Positions 3,095 to 50,971 of a stretch of DNA of 50,971 nt are shown piece after piece (positions within the stretch are counted from its first letter, which is position 1; the number at the start of each line of letters is the position of its first letter). The notes below the pieces were generated by a model. The model saw only the letters and a program-made list of their open reading frames with translations, had not been told where the DNA came from and did no database searches. Both the position numbers and the translations under genes were made by a program. Origin of the DNA: Escherichia phage herni. Location: sequence record NC_049823.1, one strand, 5' to 3'.

Positions 3095-4027
3095 TTAGAG
3101 AAGAGATTCAGGTTTGTAAACCTTCCTCTCTATCCCTTGCCTGTAATTATCATTAATCGGCATCATAATTTCAAGACCTCTTTCCTCAGCAGCAATGATC
3201 GCGTCACGGTCTGTACTCTTACAGACAACTCGCATTCTTCTGTTGCCTTTATACCTGTAAGCTACAATCTCAATGTTAGTTGCATCAAAGCAGGCCCAAA
3301 CCTCTTGACCAGTTGCAAGGTGAATATGTTGCGCATCAATCCAGTCAACGCAAAGATAGATCGTCTTATCTGTGCTTCCTGTTCTCACAATTGACCCGCG
3401 CGTGTAGTCCTTTGCGAGAAAAGACTTATTACCTTCTTCATCAATGAAAAGCACATTGCACATTTCATCATCAATTTCATCTGAATGTACCAGGTAACAT
3501 GGGAGCGCGTGAATGTATCGACCATCTTTAACGCCGCATTCATAATGACCATCTTCAGGCGGGTATATTCCTTCATATGTGCTTAACGGCGTGCGATCAA
3601 ATTTTAGTGTTTTTGACATAACGCGCTCGCAGCATTCATGGCTTGCCTGTTTCCCAAATGAATAACCAGAATCACGAGATACTCGCTTATTTGCCTTGAT
3701 TCTATAGTCCTGCGGAACTTTTCCAAGAAAGCGGCCCAAAATATTGATCACTTCGCTGTAAGGTTCTCCGGTTAGTTTCATGATCCAACCAATTCCAGTA
3801 TCATTACCGCACACGTTGCAGATCGCACCGCCATCGCCTTTTTTATCGCAAAGTTTATCCGTCCACCTGAAGCGATCCTTTCCGCCGCAGTGGGGGCAAG
3901 ATTGATGCTTGCCGTTAAAAACTTCATTTGGAAGACCGCAAATACTTTGTAGCGCCTCACGCCATAATCCCTGCATATATGGGAGAACATCTTCCTTTTG
4001 ATAAACCATAAAGTTTTCGTTATTCAT
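3095..4027 (-). CDS. putative DNA primase (zinc-ribbon plus Toprim-like)
   Basis: CPHCGG...CNVCG zinc-ribbon near N-terminus, acidic DxD-like motifs downstream; start at MNNENF (ATG 4027, GAGGTG Shine-Dalgarno); sits beside the helicase locus. Confidence 0.5.
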   Translation of the reverse strand: MNNENFMVYQKEDVLPYMQGLWREALQSICGLPNEVFNGKHQSCPHCGGKDRFRWTDKLCDKKGDGGAICNVCGNDTGIGWIMKLTGEPYSEVINILGRFLGKVPQDYRIKANKRVSRDSGYSFGKQASHECCERVMSKTLKFDRTPLSTYEGIYPPEDGHYECGVKDGRYIHALPCYLVHSDEIDDEMCNVLFIDEEGNKSFLAKDYTRGSIVRTGSTDKTIYLCVDWIDAQHIHLATGQEVWACFDATNIEIVAYRYKGNRRMRVVCKSTDRDAIIAAEERGLEIMMPINDNYRQGIERKVYKPESLL

Positions 4028-6686: not shown

Positions 6687-7092
6687 TAAAGGCGATTATC
6701 TGGAGTTTTACGAAAGAGATCCGACGGATACGCTAAAAGAGGAATCACACCAGATCGGGGCGTTTCAATGGTTGACTTATGCTTACCCTGAATTGCTGGC
6801 ATGGCATACGAAAAACGAGGGCGACAAGGGGATCGCCACCGCAATGATGGATCAGCAAGCCGGACTCGTTAAGGGCGTAAGTGATTTTATCATCCTGATT
6901 GGATTAAAAGGCCGTTATCCGTTTGCAGCAATTGAGATGAAGCGCGTCAATAAGTCTGGAAAGGGTAAGGCTTCACCAGTCAGTAAGGAGCAAAAAGCCT
7001 TCTTACGACGTGTGCGCGAGCTTGGCGGATTCGCTGCCGTAACATACGGATATAAGCAATTCATGATCGCTGTAGAATACATGATGAAATAG
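6673..7092 (+). CDS. VRR-NUC domain nuclease
   Basis: PD-(D/E)XK-like core GVSDFIIL...IEMK; start at MAMTDKG (AAGGA Shine-Dalgarno) overlaps the helicase stop. Confidence 0.55.
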   Translation: MAMTDKGDYLEFYERDPTDTLKEESHQIGAFQWLTYAYPELLAWHTKNEGDKGIATAMMDQQAGLVKGVSDFIILIGLKGRYPFAAIEMKRVNKSGKGKASPVSKEQKAFLRRVRELGGFAAVTYGYKQFMIAVEYMMK

Positions 7093-7132
7093 CACTTTTT
7101 GTTAAAACAGGCGCGAAGGATTGCGCCATAAT
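7087..7132 (+). promoter_or_regulatory. conserved intergenic motif AAATAGCACTTTTTGTTAAAAC, hairpin GGCGC-n8-GCGCC, CATAAT
   Basis: Motif contains the TAG stop of the upstream gene; ATAAT-like hexamer lies about 35 nt upstream of the Dam gene start. Confidence 0.45.
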
Positions 7133-7872: not shown

Positions 7873-8112
7873 ATGCAGAAAGAAAGAAGCGTTTATTTAA
7901 ATGAAACTGGAGAGTGGTTGTTATTTCGCGCTATGGTTTGCGAGGCGCTTGATAAAAACGAGTTCATAAAACCGCTATTAGGTTGTGATCCGTGGGAGTT
8001 TACAAGCGCGCTTGATATGAGCTTTGAGGAAACAAGAAAACTACCGCTTGAAAAATGGCATGAGCAGATCGGTAAAGACTTGCAAGAGTTTTACGAATCC
8101 GCGACAAAATAG
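7873..8112 (+). CDS. hypothetical protein (79 aa)
   Basis: ATG 7873 with GGAG Shine-Dalgarno; track ORF 7699 overlaps the Dam gene; stop embedded in the next motif copy. Confidence 0.5.
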   Translation: MQKERSVYLNETGEWLLFRAMVCEALDKNEFIKPLLGCDPWEFTSALDMSFEETRKLPLEKWHEQIGKDLQEFYESATK

Positions 8113-8155
8113 CACTTTTTGTTAAAAAGCCCGGCCCTGTGTCGGGCATAATTAT
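8107..8155 (+). promoter_or_regulatory. conserved intergenic motif, hairpin GCCCG-n9-CGGGC, ATAATT
   Basis: Motif copy; co-oriented with the gene at 8185. Confidence 0.45.
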
Positions 8156-14199: not shown

Positions 14200-14220
14200 T
14201 TTTAACAAAAAGTGCTATTT
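14200..14220 (-). promoter_or_regulatory. conserved intergenic motif (minus orientation) with hairpin GCCAGG-n7-CCTGGC and ATAAT
   Basis: TTTTAACAAAAAGTGCTATTT; contains the stop of the methyltransferase gene. Confidence 0.45.
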
Positions 14221-18790: not shown

Positions 18791-19043
18791 GGCATTAATT
18801 GGAGTTTTGATTGCAATTGCTACCCTGACCGGATGCGAAAAGGCATCTGAATCAACAGTTGTCGTAGGAGTGGAGTCAGATTTTAAAGTCGATCGCCTGT
18901 TTACTGTTGATGGATGCACTGCGTACCGATTCTATGACAACGGTCGAGCAATCTATTACACCAATTGTAAGGGAGCAACGGATAGCACATACCGCAGCGG
19001 CAAAAACGTAATGCACCAACAAGTCACAACAGATATGAAATAG
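18783..19043 (+). CDS. lipoprotein (86 aa)
   Basis: Signal peptide plus lipobox LTGC; stop embedded in the next motif copy. Confidence 0.6.
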   Translation: MNKALIGVLIAIATLTGCEKASESTVVVGVESDFKVDRLFTVDGCTAYRFYDNGRAIYYTNCKGATDSTYRSGKNVMHQQVTTDMK

Positions 19044-19085
19044 CACTTTTTGTTAAAATGCCAGGTGCGAATCCTGGCATAATAG
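19038..19085 (+). promoter_or_regulatory. conserved intergenic motif, hairpin GCCAGG-n7-CCTGGC, CATAAT
   Basis: Motif copy co-oriented with the gene at 19116. Confidence 0.45.
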
Positions 19086-36698: not shown

Positions 36699-36717
36699 TT
36701 TTAACAAAAAGTGCTAT
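36699..36717 (-). promoter_or_regulatory. conserved intergenic motif in inverted orientation, directly upstream of the tail chaperone gene
   Basis: TTTTAACAAAAAGTGCTAT on the plus strand, ending 13 nt before the ATG. Confidence 0.35.
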
Positions 36718-46104: not shown

Positions 46105-46410
46105 ATGGCTGAATATGGTGTTTCAACGTGGGATGCTAACGGGAAGTATAACAACTACGGAATCAAGCCAGTTTCCGTTGTTGGTGTCATTAGCCTTGCG
46201 GCTGGTCAGACAAGCGGATCGTGGAGCTTTAGCATTCCAAGTGGTTTTAAGGTTGGGTATGTTGTTTCGCTTGATGAGGGTGCTAGAGGGGTTGGAAGGG
46301 AAATAGTAGCATCTGGAAACACAATAAGAATCAGTCCTACATCTTCAGTTGGTGCAAATAGATATTCTTCTTCAAAGTGTGAGTTAGTTGTTTTTCTTGA
46401 GAGGGCTTAA
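46105..46410 (+). CDS. hypothetical protein (101 aa), MAEYG paralogue 1
   Basis: Start at MAEYGVSTWDANGKY with GGAGG Shine-Dalgarno. Confidence 0.5.
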   Translation: MAEYGVSTWDANGKYNNYGIKPVSVVGVISLAAGQTSGSWSFSIPSGFKVGYVVSLDEGARGVGREIVASGNTIRISPTSSVGANRYSSSKCELVVFLERA

Positions 46411-46411
46411 A

Positions 46412-47053
46412 ATGGCTGAATATGGAGCAATGTTATCTTTATCAAATGGGAATCCATTTATCACACCAAAATCAACGCCATTTTGCTTATATGGCAAGTA
46501 CACTTATTCATCTTCTGGCACTTCTGCCTATCATAGCGCAAGCGCAAATATACCATTGAATCAATCTTATCCATGTATGGCATTTATAAAAACAACAAAC
46601 ACACAGCAGCCAACTGCATTAATAGCTTACAGGAATGGTGGCAACATTTATGTAAACGGAGGCAATCCATACGGGCAATCATTTACAATGACTGTTTATA
46701 TATTTGCCATATTCCCTCAAACTCTACCCAAATATGGTATGGCTATATGGGATGCAAGCGGCAAGTTGGTTTTAACTAATGAAAGCAGGGTGCTAACAGA
46801 TCTTGTTACAATTGGTACTCCTGGTTCTTCAGGTGGAACGAATATAGATCAAACGTTATCTGGTTCTTATGCCGTTTGCCCTTCAAGGCTTGGTGCGGTT
46901 GTAGGCATGGGTGCTTCTGACATATATACATCATGCAGGTATGATGGTTCAAGCACAAGGATAGGTGCAGCAAGGACAACGCCAGGAACAGGATCTATAA
47001 CAAATAACGGAAATTCAATAATTGCAATAAGGACTGATATTTACGACCAATGA
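46412..47053 (+). CDS. hypothetical Ser/Thr/Gly-rich protein (213 aa), MAEYG paralogue 2
   Basis: Start at MAEYGAMLSL; internal YGMAIWDASGKL resembles the N-terminus of the previous gene. Confidence 0.5.
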   Translation: MAEYGAMLSLSNGNPFITPKSTPFCLYGKYTYSSSGTSAYHSASANIPLNQSYPCMAFIKTTNTQQPTALIAYRNGGNIYVNGGNPYGQSFTMTVYIFAIFPQTLPKYGMAIWDASGKLVLTNESRVLTDLVTIGTPGSSGGTNIDQTLSGSYAVCPSRLGAVVGMGASDIYTSCRYDGSSTRIGAARTTPGTGSITNNGNSIIAIRTDIYDQ

Positions 47054-47082
47054 AAAAGGGGCTTTCGCCCCTTTATTTTTAT
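47053..47082. terminator. bidirectional rho-independent terminator between convergent genes
   Basis: GGGGC-tttc-GCCCC flanked by an A-run upstream and a T-run downstream. Confidence 0.6.
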
Positions 47083-47310
47083 TTACATACTGCAATCAGC
47101 GTTTTTAAAGTTATCAATACTTACCCACTGAAAATTAAACGGATAGCCAGCCTTAACAAGAGTGCGGTCGCCAACTCGTTTTACTCCAAAAATAGCAACT
47201 GAATACTGCATACCGCTATTTTCATAAATAGCCGTGCATTCACGCTTAGGCATATTTGCGCAACCAGTCAGGGTTGCGGCTGCAATCAAAACGGCGATTA
47301 ATTTTTTCAT
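47083..47310 (-). CDS. small outer-membrane lipoprotein, possibly Cor-like superinfection exclusion protein
   Basis: 75 aa; signal peptide with lipobox LTGC; size and position next to tail genes as for Cor-type proteins; functional assignment is inference. Confidence 0.45.
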   Translation of the reverse strand: MKKLIAVLIAAATLTGCANMPKRECTAIYENSGMQYSVAIFGVKRVGDRTLVKAGYPFNFQWVSIDNFKNADCSM

Positions 47311-47366
47311 CTTGGTATCTCCTTAGTTGTTGTTGGTTGCAACTATACACGATCTTGCGGCGGTCG

Positions 47367-47385
47367 TTTAGCAAAAAGTGCTATT
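47367..47385 (-). promoter_or_regulatory. conserved intergenic motif (minus orientation) upstream of the lipoprotein gene
   Basis: TTTAGCAAAAAGTGCTATT. Confidence 0.4.
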
Positions 47386-47449
47386 CTGTTCTTTTTGTTT
47401 TCCTGCGTTCTCAAATCTGCGGAGGCGTAAATTTAGCGCAAAAAGTGAG

Positions 47450-47650
47450 CAACAATAGAGCGTAATAAATACAGATAAATATATATACATATATATAAAT
47501 CAATAAGTTAGCAGTATATATATTTATATTTGTTTTTTCTTGTTATCTATGTTTTGTGTGATTTTGTGTGTCTGGTAATTTTTATGTGGTTGTGTATGTG
47601 TCAGTGCTTGTGTGTGTCTATATATCCATATCCGGCGCAAATGGAGGAAC
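47450..47650. repeat. AT-rich then TG-rich low-complexity element (copy B), homologous to 17935-18115
   Basis: AAATCAATAAGTTAGCAGTATATATATTTATATTTGTT followed by TG-rich tracts. Confidence 0.5.
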
Positions 47651-47763
47651 AAGAGAACAAAAAGACAACAAAGATATTTATCAATCACTTACATGTAAAT
47701 TTTGTTATCCGATTCGTCTGGAACGTTGTTAGAACAGAAAAAACAAAATAACTGTTGACTAAA

Positions 47764-47791
47764 CGCATTAAATAGCTAAAATGCAGGCATA
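47764..47791 (+). promoter_or_regulatory. sigma70-like promoter (TTGACT, 16 nt, TAAAAT)
   Basis: Near-consensus hexamers about 20 nt upstream of the gene at 47812. Confidence 0.5.
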
Positions 47792-47811
47792 CCAACAAAC
47801 GAGGGCAAATC

Positions 47812-48873
47812 ATGAATAAGTTTATGGCGTACACCAGCGAAGAAATGAGCAACGAGCTTTATCACGATCCAGAAGCGTGGACGGCTGATTATGTTAGCGG
47901 TTCAAGCCTGGCAGAGATTTACAGCACATGCCCGGCAGCGTGGAAGTTCAAGCCGCGTGACGACAAGAGCAAGGCGCTAGTTTTTGGTACGCAGTCGCAT
48001 ACCAACTTTGAAAGCAAGGAGCTTTTCGAAAAAACTTATCGCCGTGCGCCAGCGCCAGAAGACTTTAAGGATCTGATAACCAGCCAAACGGCGCTTGCTG
48101 CAAAGCTGAAATCATTTGGCCTGAAAGGTACAACCGGAAAGACTTACCCCGAACTTATAAAAATGATGGTTGACTGCGGAGAAGACCTTAACGTCATGTG
48201 GTTAATCGACATGATCGCAGAAAGTCAGGCCAGGGCCGATGGGGTTCAGTTAATCGAGGCTAAAGATTACGATTCGTGCGTGGCAATGCGCCAGGTTCTG
48301 GAATCAATACCGGAACATAACGCATGTATGAATAGCAAGACGGCACAGCGTGAATTATCGTTGTTCGGTGAAATTAACGGCGTAAAAGTCAAAGTGCGAT
48401 GCGATCACGTTGACGTAACAAAGAACGTCACCGCAACGCTGATTGATGGTTACGATGAAAAAGGCCAGCCGATTTGCCGCGATATTATTTATCCAGAGGC
48501 CATTGTGATCACAGACTACAAAACTACAATGAGCGCGAATCCGGCTGAGTTTATGCGCCTGGCTTACAATCACGGCTATTATTTGAAAATGGCGTTGCAA
48601 TGTGATTTATTCAGAAAAGCGTATCCAGAAGAAAAGCGACCTATAGTTGTGCGACTGTTAGCGCAAGAGAAGAAAGAGCCTTATTTGCCGTTGGCTTTCC
48701 GAATGAATAGCGAGCAGTTGAAGATCGGGCGCATTCAGTACATGAGCGTGATTAACCAGTTTGCCATGTGCCAGCAACATGACGTTTGGCCTTCGTATTC
48801 AAACGGTGAGCCTGAGGTTTGCCTTGATACTCCTGATTGGGTGCGCCGCCAGTTTAAGCAATATCTTATTTAA
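47812..48873 (+). CDS. PD-(D/E)XK recombination exonuclease
   Basis: RCDHVD and IVITDYKTT nuclease motifs; sits upstream of the Erf and SSB genes. Confidence 0.6.
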   Translation: MNKFMAYTSEEMSNELYHDPEAWTADYVSGSSLAEIYSTCPAAWKFKPRDDKSKALVFGTQSHTNFESKELFEKTYRRAPAPEDFKDLITSQTALAAKLKSFGLKGTTGKTYPELIKMMVDCGEDLNVMWLIDMIAESQARADGVQLIEAKDYDSCVAMRQVLESIPEHNACMNSKTAQRELSLFGEINGVKVKVRCDHVDVTKNVTATLIDGYDEKGQPICRDIIYPEAIVITDYKTTMSANPAEFMRLAYNHGYYLKMALQCDLFRKAYPEEKRPIVVRLLAQEKKEPYLPLAFRMNSEQLKIGRIQYMSVINQFAMCQQHDVWPSYSNGEPEVCLDTPDWVRRQFKQYLI

Positions 48874-48954
48874 ACAGCACAAATAGCTAAACAAATGAAA
48901 AATGCGGTGTTATAATTCACCGCACAAGTTAACAACAAGCGTGAGGAAATAAAC

Positions 48955-49233
48955 ATGGAAAACAAGCAAGTGTCAGAGGTGGCAGTTCATATCAACAATT
49001 TTGCAACTGGCATGGCTATGTTGCTTCGTGACTTTGTGGCGCCACTTGATCCAACTGCAGGCGAAGAAGAAATGGAGTACATCAGAAAAGTAATTGATGC
49101 GGTCGATAACGTCGTACTTATTGCAACAATGAGCGAAGACAACGATGAAGCAATCAAGGCGGTAAAAGAAAGTTCTGATCGCATGATGGAAAATCTGATT
49201 AAATTACACACCAAAGAAGAAACAAAGCACTAA
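48955..49233 (+). CDS. hypothetical protein (92 aa, acidic)
   Basis: ORF track; GAGGAAA Shine-Dalgarno. Confidence 0.5.
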   Translation: MENKQVSEVAVHINNFATGMAMLLRDFVAPLDPTAGEEEMEYIRKVIDAVDNVVLIATMSEDNDEAIKAVKESSDRMMENLIKLHTKEETKH

Positions 49234-49278
49234 CAGCAATAAGGCGGCGAAAGCCGCCATTAATTACGGGAATTAATC

Positions 49279-49935
49279 ATGAAACTATCAGAGCAATTCG
49301 ACAAGGTTTTGCCAGCACTGCATAAGGCGCGCAGTTTGTTTGTAAAGGTGAAGAAGGATAAGCAAAACACGCACCTTAAAAACCGTTACGCAACACTTGA
49401 TGCCGTACTTGATGCAATCACTCCAGCACTCAACGATAACGAGCTAATGTTGATGCAGGATATGATTGAAAGCGAACAACCTAACCGAATCAAGGTTGAA
49501 ACTACAGTCATGCATGTTTCCGGTCAGTGGGTTAAATTCTATGCTGAATTACCAATAGTTAAAAACGATCCTCAAGGCGTCGGATCTGCATTCACATATG
49601 CTCGTCGTTATGCAGCCGCAGCCGCATTTGGATTAAGCCAGGCAGACGATGACGCACAGATTGCCGTTAAATCTGCAAACGACTGGAAGCGTGACATTGA
49701 GAAATGTGAAAGCGTAAACGAATTACAAGAAGTGCTCAAATCAGCATGGAAGGCAAGCGATCCGGCAAGCAAGCAGGTAATTAAAGAGCATTACGAAAAA
49801 CGCAAAGCAGAGCTTGAGATAGGCAAAGCACGAGGATTTAATCCAGCACAACCAAAACAAAATCTTGCCTCGCCAGAAGTTGACACAAAAAACGACGAGC
49901 AAGTAAAATCACAAAGTATCACTGATTTTGAATAA
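49279..49935 (+). CDS. erf: Erf-family single-strand annealing protein
   Basis: N-terminal region with NRYATLDAV and FTYARRYA typical of the Erf family. Confidence 0.65.
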
Positions 49936-49942
49936 TTGACAT

Positions 49943-49964
49943 GGGGCGCTTGCGCCCCTTTCTT
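49943..49964 (+). terminator. rho-independent terminator
   Basis: GGGGCGC-tt-GCGCCCC followed by TTTCTT. Confidence 0.55.
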
Positions 49965-49979
49965 ACAGGAGTATAAAAC

Positions 49980-50429
49980 ATGCATATTATTACTGGTGAG
50001 ATCCGAAAAGAGCCGCGAGTAAAGCAAATGCCTAACGGCAGCACACTTTATGTGGTTGAGCTTTCAGAGCGATACAAAGATAAAGATGGAAACTGGCAAT
50101 ATACAAACTACAGTTTCTTTTTTAATGCTAAAACAGAAGGTCTTAAGGGTTGGTATGATGAGGCGTTCCAGGTTGGCAAGGTTATTTCTTTATCTTGCGA
50201 CACGCTGCGCATTGAGACGCGTGAATATAACGGAAAGATGTATTCAAGTTTAATGCCAGGAGGATTTGCAAATCTTATCTTCAGCCAGCGCGGTGAAAGC
50301 CAGCAACAATATCAGCAGCGAACGCAAGGAGGATGGGGCCAACAACAACAGAATCAACCGCAACAACCTCAACAGCCAAGACAAAGCAATCAACCTCCTA
50401 TGGACTTTGACGACGACATCCCTTTCTGA
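49980..50429 (+). CDS. ssb: single-stranded DNA-binding protein
   Basis: OB-fold-like N-terminal region, Gln/Gly-rich linker, acidic C-terminal tail DFDDDIPF. Confidence 0.8.
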   Translation: MHIITGEIRKEPRVKQMPNGSTLYVVELSERYKDKDGNWQYTNYSFFFNAKTEGLKGWYDEAFQVGKVISLSCDTLRIETREYNGKMYSSLMPGGFANLIFSQRGESQQQYQQRTQGGWGQQQQNQPQQPQQPRQSNQPPMDFDDDIPF

Positions 50430-50435
50430 TCAACA

Positions 50436-50458
50436 AAGGGGCATTACGCCCCTTTATC
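50436..50458. terminator. bidirectional terminator between convergent genes
   Basis: GGGGC-atta-GCCCC flanked by A and T runs. Confidence 0.5.
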
Positions 50459-50701
50459 ACTTTCAGCCATCCCAAGCACGGCAATTACTTTAACAGCAAT
50501 TCTCTTTGCTAGTTCAGTTTGATGCGCATTTAATTTTCCGGTAGTCATTATTGACAGCATTCCGCTCATACTACCTAGCCCGTTAAAATCTGACATTGCT
50601 GATTTCATTATTGATATTGGCAAATGACCTTCGTCAGCTATTGTGTGCGCTCTCTCTGACAGGTCTTTAACTACCTGATCAATTCCTTCACTTTTCGTCA
50701 T
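50444..50701 (-). CDS. hypothetical protein (85 aa)
   Basis: ORF track. Confidence 0.45.
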   Translation of the reverse strand: MTKSEGIDQVVKDLSERAHTIADEGHLPISIMKSAMSDFNGLGSMSGMLSIMTTGKLNAHQTELAKRIAVKVIAVLGMAESDKGA

Positions 50702-50957
50702 TTGCTTTTCCTTCAGGAGTTGATTGTTGTTCTGGCATTACAGGCCATGGGCTAATTGATTCCCTTTCTGCGACTGGCTTTTCAGGTTCAATTCCTAAAA
50801 ACTTTCCTACAAACTCACCAACAAAATTTGAGCTATCGCTTACATAAACATGCATCCTGTCCAGATCTGCAACAGTAACGCTATTTGGTGCGATCATGAT
50901 CCTCTGTTGGTGAAAACCGATATACATCACATTAGCCGGACGCTCAAGAGTCCCCAT
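50688..50957 (-). CDS. hypothetical protein (89 aa)
   Basis: ORF track; start close to the window end. Confidence 0.45.
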   Translation of the reverse strand: MGTLERPANVMYIGFHQQRIMIAPNSVTVADLDRMHVYVSDSSNFVGEFVGKFLGIEPEKPVAERESISPWPVMPEQQSTPEGKANDEK

Positions 50958-50971
50958 ATTTGGCGCAATTA

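Follow-up and report, generated by a model that had tools for sequence, protein, structure and literature searches.

Four plus-strand genes at positions 47812–50429 of the window (the whole 50,971-nucleotide stretch of DNA analysed, from Escherichia phage herni, NC_049823.1) very probably serve a virulent siphophage of the T1-like group (Hanrivervirus) as its recombination module, acting via single-strand annealing. They encode an exonuclease, a small protein designated here orfX, an Erf annealase and an SSB-like protein, and form an isolated plus-strand island, with the minus-strand gene cor on one side and convergent minus-strand genes on the other. The first-pass annotation had placed a module of exonuclease, Erf annealase and SSB in this position, and homology, fold and synteny agree with that assignment. 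Its limits are exact, being 47812 the ATG of a 353-aa open reading frame and 50429 the final stop-codon base of a 149-aa one, but it had counted three genes and overlooked orfX. The exonuclease and annealase genes are adjacent, lie on the same strand and share an upstream promoter, which is the arrangement of a two-component recombinase operon of the Red or RecET type, and the order exo-(orfX)-erf-ssb is kept in TLS, P-K7R, PHB07, JLBYU19, three metagenomic contigs and T1. The genome is of the Hanrivervirus type (Drexlerviridae, T1-like); its positions 47500–50500 share 99.8% identity with Escherichia phage vB_EcoS_G29-2 and are present in more than 100 phage records at 80–99.8% identity. Indeed, the module is already known, as its genes are annotated in this way in T1, TLS, the BASEL phages and many further records. 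A search of the four module proteins with PADLOC matched no defence-system model, NCBIfam returned nothing for the module proteins apart from the RecE C-terminus and the SSB tail, and an Rfam scan of positions 46900–50971 (E ≤ 1) found no RNA family.

The first gene (47812–48873, plus strand) encodes a 353-aa protein which Pfam, PHROG, alignment, AF2 and Foldseek analyses place in the RecE family of PD-(D/E)XK exonucleases; as a member of this family it would be predicted to have processive 5'-3' dsDNA exonuclease activity and to form a toroidal oligomer. In agreement with the earlier exonuclease call, Pfam PF12684 (DUF3799/PDDEXK-like) matches residues 223–331 with 61.1 bits and 1.7e-16, the gathering cut-off being 26 bits, and phrog_412 ('exonuclease VIII') covers residues 3–350 with E = 2.2e-99. 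The catalytic residues are H63, D198, D235 and K237: in an alignment of 31 homologues, with identities down to 26%, H63, R196, D198 and D235 do not vary, and K237 reaches a conservation of at least 90%. The AF2 model has a pLDDT of 94.1 and its best Foldseek match in the PDB is E. coli RecE (3h4r, E = 2.4e-9, target-normalised TM 0.77), followed by other PD-(D/E)XK nucleases. A HMMER pairwise alignment to 3h4r placed the first catalytic aspartate in the CRD motif at residues 222–224; this reading was rejected, since in the 31-sequence alignment D198 is invariant and residues from about 203 to 230 form a lineage-specific β-hairpin insertion. The identity to exonuclease VIII of T1 is 63%.

The third gene (49279–49935, plus strand) encodes a 218-aa single-strand annealing protein of the Erf family, whose assembly into rings and whose annealing activity are predicted. 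The family assignment confirms the earlier Erf call, as the Pfam ERF match (PF04404, 90.3 bits, 1.7e-25, residues 14–149) is well above the gathering cut-off of 25 bits; phrog_155 is matched at 1e-47, and in the PDB the protein finds Gp77 of phage SECphi27 (9y6u/9y9c, E = 8e-117, 83% identity). By cryo-EM and mass photometry, Gp77 is a 24-mer ring with a mass of about 600 kDa. It is essential, given that phage with gene 77 knocked out needs Gp77 provided in trans to form plaques, and it sets off the RAZR defence (PMC13017515). Our literature search found no biochemical assay of any Drexlerviridae Erf, and the word 'annealing' is absent from the Gp77 paper. The two proteins differ at 38 positions, clustered at residues 62–72 and in the C-terminal third, and at residue 31 the protein under study has a threonine for the serine of Gp77, where S31R is an escape site. 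All the RAZR-contact residues of the solved Gp77 complex (S19, L20, V22, D41, D53 and E55) are kept, and the phage is therefore expected to be RAZR-sensitive.

Between these two genes lies orfX (48955–49233, plus strand), the open reading frame missed earlier, which has its own Shine-Dalgarno sequence (GAGGAA) and encodes an acidic protein (pI 4.65) of 92 residues, modelled by AF2 as a three-helix bundle with a pLDDT of 90.7. Its 144 homologues are 85–109 aa long and show no Pfam domain. Foldseek searches with the model returned nothing informative from the PDB, the best match having E of about 3, and only members of its own family from BFVD. A gene of this family is found between the exonuclease and ERF genes in all eight Tempevirinae loci that were checked; in T1 these two genes are separated by a gap of 41 nt which holds no gene, and thus the three-helix protein is a Tempevirinae-specific addition. 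An 'antitoxin' PHROG (7e-4) and Gp-FAR-1 (E = 0.12) are matched weakly, which was taken for noise due to helical sequence. Tape measure proteins are very long and largely helical, and their genes lie among the tail genes, with the tail assembly chaperones on one side and the distal tail proteins on the other. The database label 'tail length tape measure protein', attached to this family through phrog_11265, was rejected as a propagated annotation error, considering the 92-residue length, the compact three-helix bundle and the position between exo and erf; the genuine tape measure gene of T1 measures 2.9 kb and lies elsewhere in the genome. It is possible, although rather unlikely, that orfX contributes to the Tempevirinae Exo/Erf module a function which has so far not been described, acting as a factor for coupling or loading that links the RecE-type nuclease with the Erf ring, as an inhibitor of RecBCD or of other nucleases in the role of Gam, or as a shield against defences that sense recombinases, such as RAZR and retrons. 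The gene is also preceded by a conserved promoter-like element of its own.

The last gene (49980–50429, plus strand) encodes the 149-aa SSB-like protein, recognised from its phrog_44 match and its C-terminal tip, with a layout comprising a divergent N-terminal domain of about 100 residues, a linker rich in Q, P and G, and a C-terminal PMDFDDDIPF; these final ten residues are identical to the tip of E. coli SSB (aligned to 1eqq). The earlier assignment as SSB holds in respect to the phrog_44 match and to the exact tip, whereas Pfam does not recognise the divergent N-terminal domain: the PF00436 match (15.9 bits, E = 0.013, residues 3–43) falls under the 26-bit cut-off and only one of 27 family members is found by Pfam SSB at E < 0.01. 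This divergence, together with the fact that the curated models TIGR00621 and PRK09010 match the tail alone (residues 104–149), would suit a protein which is not an OB-fold SSB, but a decoy or adaptor that mimics the host SSB tip and so captures SSB-interacting host proteins. Pointing in the same direction, a profile of the N-terminal domain from five phage sequences finds no SSB in the PDB, only chance immunoglobulin matches, and hhalign against the N-terminal domain of E. coli SSB yields a probability of only 9–35%. However, phrog_44 is matched not only by the whole protein (3e-25) but also by residues 1–104 alone (3e-14), and the elements G-x-x-x-x-x-P, S-E-x-x-x-D-K and K-G-x-x-V are in register with E. 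coli SSB. Moreover, the family profile with the tail included reaches the SSB structures 7f2n (7e-11) and 1eqq and, weakly, the mitochondrial SSB RIM1, which has no tail. An HMM of the N-terminal domain scores 6.4 bits against residues 1–116 of E. coli SSB, ranking 12 of 20,001 when compared with 20,000 shuffles (empirical p ~6e-4). A decoy or adaptor thus appears quite improbable, and a canonical OB fold is weakly suggested by the sequence. Phage SSBs are common in annealase operons, and RecT-type annealases bind the last seven residues of SSB; this interaction between annealase and SSB tail is known from RecT, not from Erf.

Taken as a single-strand annealing module, the exonuclease would digest the 5' strands at breaks and at the termini of a linear genome with terminal redundancy and headful packaging. 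The Erf ring oligomer would then bind the exposed 3' single strands and anneal complementary repeats, yielding circular or concatemeric DNA for replication and packaging. The SSB-like protein may coat single-stranded DNA and engage, through its host-identical tip, partners that normally dock on the host SSB, while the orfX protein is envisaged as a lineage-specific accessory. Pac/headful packaging with terminal redundancy is described for TLS, and this provides a natural substrate for the module. The exonuclease, erf and ssb genes could nevertheless be mere neighbours, with an exonuclease devoted mainly to nucleotide salvage and degradation of the host chromosome, which T1 is known to carry out by a protein yet to be assigned, and an SSB devoted mainly to replication: host-genome degradation by T1-like phages is named an open question in the TLS paper, and replication forks need SSB anyway. 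This arrangement seems improbable, since nucleases of the RecE family resect DNA processively from its ends and typically come with an annealase, and the exo-erf-ssb adjacency is strict across two subfamilies. In addition, escape mutants of the T1-like phage Stevie_ev116 against Retron-Vpa2 are affected in the exonuclease as well as in the recombinase with the ERF domain, both encoded in one operon.

The same four-gene block is found in SECphi27 (Gp75–Gp78) and in the BASEL phages Bas01–Bas11 (Drexlerviridae), the identity to JakobBernoulli (Bas07) over the module being 96.6%. T1 has gp29 (exonuclease VIII), gp28 (Erf-like) and gp27 in the same order and in the same position after cor, and shares with the module the conserved promoter and the erf-ssb hairpin, but has no gene between exonuclease and erf. 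RecE/RecT of the Rac prophage has the same RecE nuclease fold, the same catalytic H...D...DxK pattern and the same logic of pairing exonuclease and annealase; there, however, the annealase is RecT, whereas here it belongs to the Erf family and an SSB is encoded as well. The exonuclease, with 353 residues, has helical and β-hairpin insertions and is devoid of the long N-terminal region of RecE, and it matches only the C-terminal end of the 877-position NCBIfam RecE model. Lambda Red (Exo, Beta and Gam) works alike, by 5'-3' resection followed by annealing, and is also sensed by Retron-Vpa2, but all its protein families are different; no Gam homologue was detected, and orfX resembles no solved structure. 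P22 Erf belongs to the Erf family, is ring-forming and circularises a terminally redundant, headful-packaged genome. P22 pairs Erf with Arf and with the RecBCD modifiers Abc1 and Abc2 and is not known to pair it with an exonuclease of its own, while the module described here has its dedicated RecE-type nuclease and its SSB. In rec+ hosts P22 can do without Erf; Gp77, in contrast, is essential in a RecA+ host, and so the step that is served could be replication rather than circularisation.

The discovery value of the module is small: for the annealase of a close relative, both the structure and the effect of a knockout are on record. In practice the module is of modest use: current recombineering screens seek sets of Exo, Erf and cognate SSB, and our literature search found no published case in which a T1-type Exo/Erf pair was assayed for recombineering. 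With its exact E. coli SSB tip the SSB-like protein should work in enterobacteria, although E. coli is already served by excellent recombineering systems. The points that could repay work are the small gene embedded in the module and the retention of the RAZR-contact residues by Erf.

In respect to transcription, a σ70-type promoter (TTGACT-16 nt-TAAAAT, plus strand) is present at 47755–47782, about 30 nt 5' of the exonuclease start codon, in line with the consensus-like promoter of the first-pass annotation, and agrees with the consensus at 10 of 12 positions. A promoter scan is by itself not above chance (13 sites versus 8.7 ± 3.0 in shuffles), but the pattern TTGACTA...GCTAnAAT recurs in phages of five Tempevirinae genera (JakobBernoulli, TLS, P-K7R, PHB07 and JLBYU19) and in T1, and it is this family-wide conservation that makes the promoter credible. 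Expression of the module would start from it, probably modulated by the gap hairpins and by a second promoter-like element. All three intergenic gaps and the 3' end of the module hold stable GC hairpins on the plus strand, in the range of −11.7 to −14 kcal/mol. The exonuclease-orfX gap contains, at 48874–48892 (plus strand), the copy ACAGCACAAATAGCTAAAC of the 21-nt direct repeat of T1/TLS type, degenerate with three mismatches to the repeat consensus. The repeat occurs in 24 copies in the genome, versus 2.8 expected, and lies upstream of many genes; this copy is the counterpart of DR9 of TLS, located between gp51 and gp52, and is kept in relatives. In the same gap follows a GC hairpin at 48902–48925 (plus strand, −11.7 kcal/mol, z = −3.6), annotated as a putative terminator in the G29-2 record, whose loop carries at 48907–48916 the extended −10-like element GTGTTATAAT. 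The orfX-erf gap has the hairpin GGCGGC-GAAA-GCCGCC at 49243–49258 (plus strand, −14.0 kcal/mol, z = −3.4), with a weak U-tract (AUUAAUU); it is kept in TLS, PHB07 and P-K7R, and the TLS authors named its counterpart T52. In the erf-ssb gap, an intrinsic-terminator-like hairpin (GGGGCG-CTTG-CGCCCC, then TTTCTT; 49943–49958, plus strand, −12.4 kcal/mol) has a stem that is kept in all seven phages aligned, both arms being different in T1. At the 3' end a bidirectional terminator hairpin (50435–50455; −13.3 kcal/mol and z = −5.4 on the plus strand, −17.0 kcal/mol and z = −5.8 on the minus strand), recorded as a terminator in G29-2, closes the module against the convergent minus-strand genes.

That the four genes form one operon is plausible and is put no more strongly, because there is a hairpin in each gap and, 5' of orfX, a further conserved promoter-like element. 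A layout of two or three nested transcription units, which would leave the function as it is and alter timing and dosage, is a real possibility, if not the favoured one. The exonuclease would then be transcribed from the σ70-type promoter, orfX and erf from the direct-repeat element and the extended −10 (48874–48916), and ssb would be partly insulated by the 49943–49958 terminator, possibly with a start of its own at TTGACA-18-TAAAAT (49880–49909). In agreement with such units, the direct-repeat-like element and GTGnTATAnT are found in all six Tempevirinae relatives compared, with the spacing seen at the other 23 repeat copies of the genome, and the TLS authors treat P51-gp51-DR9-gp52-T52 as a separate 'transcripton'. 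The site in the 3' end of erf matches 11 of 12 promoter positions and its hexamers are kept even in T1, but the same positions code for a conserved C-terminal peptide, which could alone explain their conservation. Also, the hairpins 3' of the exonuclease and of orfX are devoid of U-tracts on the plus strand, other than the weak one already described, and in TLS, PHB07 and P-K7R the erf-ssb hairpin has no T-tail, making read-through likely. An overlap of erf and ssb in JLBYU19 was rejected: the annotated start is N-extended, and both hairpin and MHVIT start are kept in this phage too.

The recombination module of Escherichia phage herni is of a known kind and has itself already been described: its genes bear the annotations exodeoxyribonuclease VIII, recombination protein and SSB in T1, TLS and the BASEL phages, and for the annealase a structure and a genetic test are available from a close relative. 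The limits assigned in the first-pass annotation (47812 and 50429) are exact, corresponding to the start of a 353-residue and the end of a 149-residue ORF, whereas the three genes it recognized are actually four + strand ORFs, each with a Shine-Dalgarno sequence: the exonuclease (47812-48873, 353 aa), orfX (48955-49233, 92 aa), erf (49279-49935, 218 aa) and the ssb-like gene (49980-50429, 149 aa). The three-helix protein encoded by orfX is the sole uncharacterised element of the module.

The 353-residue protein scores 61 bits with Pfam DUF3799 (PDDEXK-like; cut-off 26), matches phrog_412 'exonuclease VIII' over its full length (2e-99), and shares 63% identity with the T1 exonuclease VIII. In an alignment of 31 homologues, extending down to 26% identity, residues H63, R196, D198 and D235 are invariant and K237 is nearly so. 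AlphaFold2 run on this alignment gave a confident model (pLDDT 94.1), with the nuclease domain of E. coli RecE as its top PDB neighbour (3h4r, E = 2.4e-9, TM 0.77), followed by other PD-(D/E)XK nucleases (AddB/AdnAB, Cas4, EXO5, MGME1). The same alignment defines residues ~203-230 as a lineage-specific insertion, and corrects a pairwise HMMER alignment to RecE that had placed the first catalytic Asp inside it. The insertion corresponds to a long beta-hairpin between the catalytic strands (D198; D235-x-K237), found in Tempevirinae and T1 and missing in shorter family members.

The 218-residue protein scores 90 bits against Pfam ERF (cut-off 25) and matches PDB entries 9y6u/9y9c, 'Gp77', with E = 8e-117 and 180 of 218 positions identical. 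Gp77 is a SECphi27 protein described by Zhang et al., Nature 2026 (PMC13017515), who report its structural homology to P22 Erf, its assembly as a 24-fold ring of ~600 kDa, the proximity of gene 77 to an adjoining putative SSB gene, and its essentiality, as the gene-77 knockout plaques solely with plasmid-supplied Gp77. The same study establishes Gp77 as the trigger around which the RNase of the phage-defence system RAZR assembles, with contacts involving L20, V22, D53 and E55 and escape substitutions S19R, S31R and D41Y (PMC13017515). The herni Erf keeps S19, L20, V22, D41, D53 and E55, with T instead of S at position 31, and from this conservation it is expected that herni would be sensed by RAZR. 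A second defence system, Retron-Vpa2, also relates to these genes: according to a separate preprint, the T1-like phage Stevie_ev116 escapes it through mutations in the exonuclease and in the ERF-domain recombinase, which are described there as 'contained in the same operon'.

The 149-residue protein ends, after a Q/P/G-rich linker, in the same ten residues as E. coli SSB (PMDFDDDIPF), and the curated SSB models TIGR00621 and PRK09010 match only this tail. The N-terminal domain (~100 aa) yields 15.9 bits with Pfam SSB, under the threshold of 26; a small profile of this domain found no SSB in the PDB, and hhalign comparison with the N-terminal domain of E. coli SSB gave a probability of only 9-35%, with the alignment in register. 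The domain alone matches phrog_44 (SSB) at 3e-14, and an N-terminal-only HMM ranks the real E. coli domain 12th among 20,001 sequences, 20,000 of them shuffles. A profile of the 44 relatives retrieved by exhaustive search reaches the SSB chains 7f2n (7e-11) and 1eqq (2e-7), with a weak hit to RIM1, a mitochondrial SSB that has no tail. On these results we named the protein SSB-like; its divergent N-terminal domain probably has an OB fold. All relatives keep a downstream ATG (MHVIT...) as the start, including Escherichia phage JLBYU19 (OK272489), whose annotated ssb (3381-3884) is N-extended by 17 codons and spans the conserved erf-ssb hairpin.

By analogy with the well-studied RecE/RecT, lambda Red and P22 Erf systems, the module most likely operates through resection, annealing and SSB protection. 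The exonuclease would resect 5' strands at the ends of a terminally redundant genome packaged by the headful mechanism (in TLS, from a pac site), the Erf ring would anneal the complementary 3' tails into the circles or concatemers needed for replication and packaging, and the SSB would shield single-stranded DNA, its host-identical tip providing a link to SSB-docking proteins. RecT-type annealases read the last seven SSB residues, and phage SSBs are frequent companions of annealases. In classical T1 genetics, phage-encoded general recombination functions are required for concatemer formation, which agrees with the essentiality of Gp77. The module resembles lambda Red and RecET in the way it works, and differs from them in that its RecE-type nuclease is accompanied by an annealase of the Erf type and an SSB of its own; a Gam homologue was not detectable.

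The orfX protein is acidic (pI 4.65) and confidently predicted as a three-helix bundle (pLDDT 90.7). None of its 144 detected homologues (85-109 aa) has a Pfam domain, and Foldseek searches with the model turned up no informative PDB neighbour (best E ~3) and, in BFVD, only its own Drexlerviridae family (Henu8, Stevie_ev116, XY3 and Hafnia phage Pocis76). In all eight loci examined, the gene is flanked by those for the DUF3799 exonuclease and the ERF protein; these loci are from the window, TLS, Klebsiella phage P-K7R, Salmonella phage PHB07, Warwickvirus JLBYU19 and three metagenomic contigs, the latter with copies of 29-41% identity. By contrast, T1 (Tunavirinae) is devoid of orfX, its exonuclease-erf gap being 41 nt. 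The label 'tail length tape measure protein' widely attached to orfX (phrog_11265; RefSeq, e.g. NC_049822, NC_009540) is a propagated annotation error.

The upstream promoter proposed earlier is indeed present (TTGACT-16-TAAAAT, 47755-47782) and conserved, with TTGACTA...GCTAnAATG common to five Tempevirinae genera and T1; in the promoter scan taken alone, the 13 sites do not exceed the chance level (8.7 +/- 3.0 in shuffles). As to the single operon also proposed, read-through from this promoter to the bidirectional terminator 3' of ssb (50435-50455) is plausible. Nested transcription units are equally possible: a stable hairpin occupies every intergenic gap, at 48902-48925 (exonuclease-orfX, -11.7 kcal/mol), 49243-49258 (orfX-erf, -14.0 kcal/mol) and 49943-49958 (erf-ssb, -12.4 kcal/mol, followed by TTTCTT), the stem of the last being kept in 7/7 aligned phages and its T-tail not. 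In the exonuclease-orfX gap, the 21-nt direct repeat of T1/TLS also occurs in degenerate form (48874-48892, + strand) with a conserved GTGnTATAnT downstream, and the TLS authors notate the equivalent arrangement P51-gp51-DR9-gp52-T52. The erf 3' end (49880-49935) encodes the C-terminal peptide KSQSITDFE, of which ITDFE is kept in 7/7 aligned phages including T1, and also holds a promoter match (TTGACA-18-TAAAAT, 11/12) immediately 5' of the erf-ssb hairpin; from sequence alone, promoter function is inseparable here from coding constraint.

The TLS/T1-type repeat ATAGCACnnnTTGnTAAAA occurs in 24 copies in the window against 2.8 expected, for example at 7089-7107, 8109-8127, 19040-19058 and 48874-48892 (+ strand) and at 14200-14218, 36699-36717 and 47366-47384 (- strand). 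With the exception of a few weak matches carrying 3 mismatches, the copies are oriented towards a start codon ~55-80 nt downstream. In a fixed-register alignment most are followed by a spacer of ~19 nt, often a GC-rich inverted repeat, and then by a -10-like hexamer (cATAAT/tATAgT), a CAtC.A.AC.AA motif, a Shine-Dalgarno sequence and ATG. Taking TTGTTA as the -35, the spacer would be ~22 nt, too long for sigma-70, and for this reason we consider that the elements may be phage-factor-dependent promoters or RNA elements; the TLS authors count the function of the direct repeat among open questions.

The module forms an isolated + strand island with convergent - strand genes downstream. Immediately upstream, likewise in T1, are the Cor superinfection-exclusion lipoprotein (47083-47310, - strand; phrog_1119, 3e-28) and its usual membrane-associated companion (46388-47053, + strand; phrog_425, 2e-68). 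The 500 bp between cor (-) and the exonuclease (+), 47311-47811, are non-coding, with an AT-repeat tract (47464-47500) and TG-rich tracts (~47540-47620), and their TATATA / TTGTT / GTGTG character is kept across Tempevirinae and recognisable in T1; no Rfam match was found within this region, for which an origin, DNA-bending or regulatory role are all conceivable. The segment 47500-50500 matches 161 phage records, with 99.8% identity to Escherichia phage vB_EcoS_G29-2 (Drexlerviridae, Tempevirinae, Hanrivervirus) and 95-98% to many other Hanrivervirus isolates, the BASEL phage JakobBernoulli among them. Positions 1-24000 match best JakobBernoulli and slyngel, with only ~95% identity over ~90% of the length, and in JakobBernoulli the counterpart of these first 24 kb continues from the module's end, so that the window is a circularly permuted, mosaic T1-like genome.
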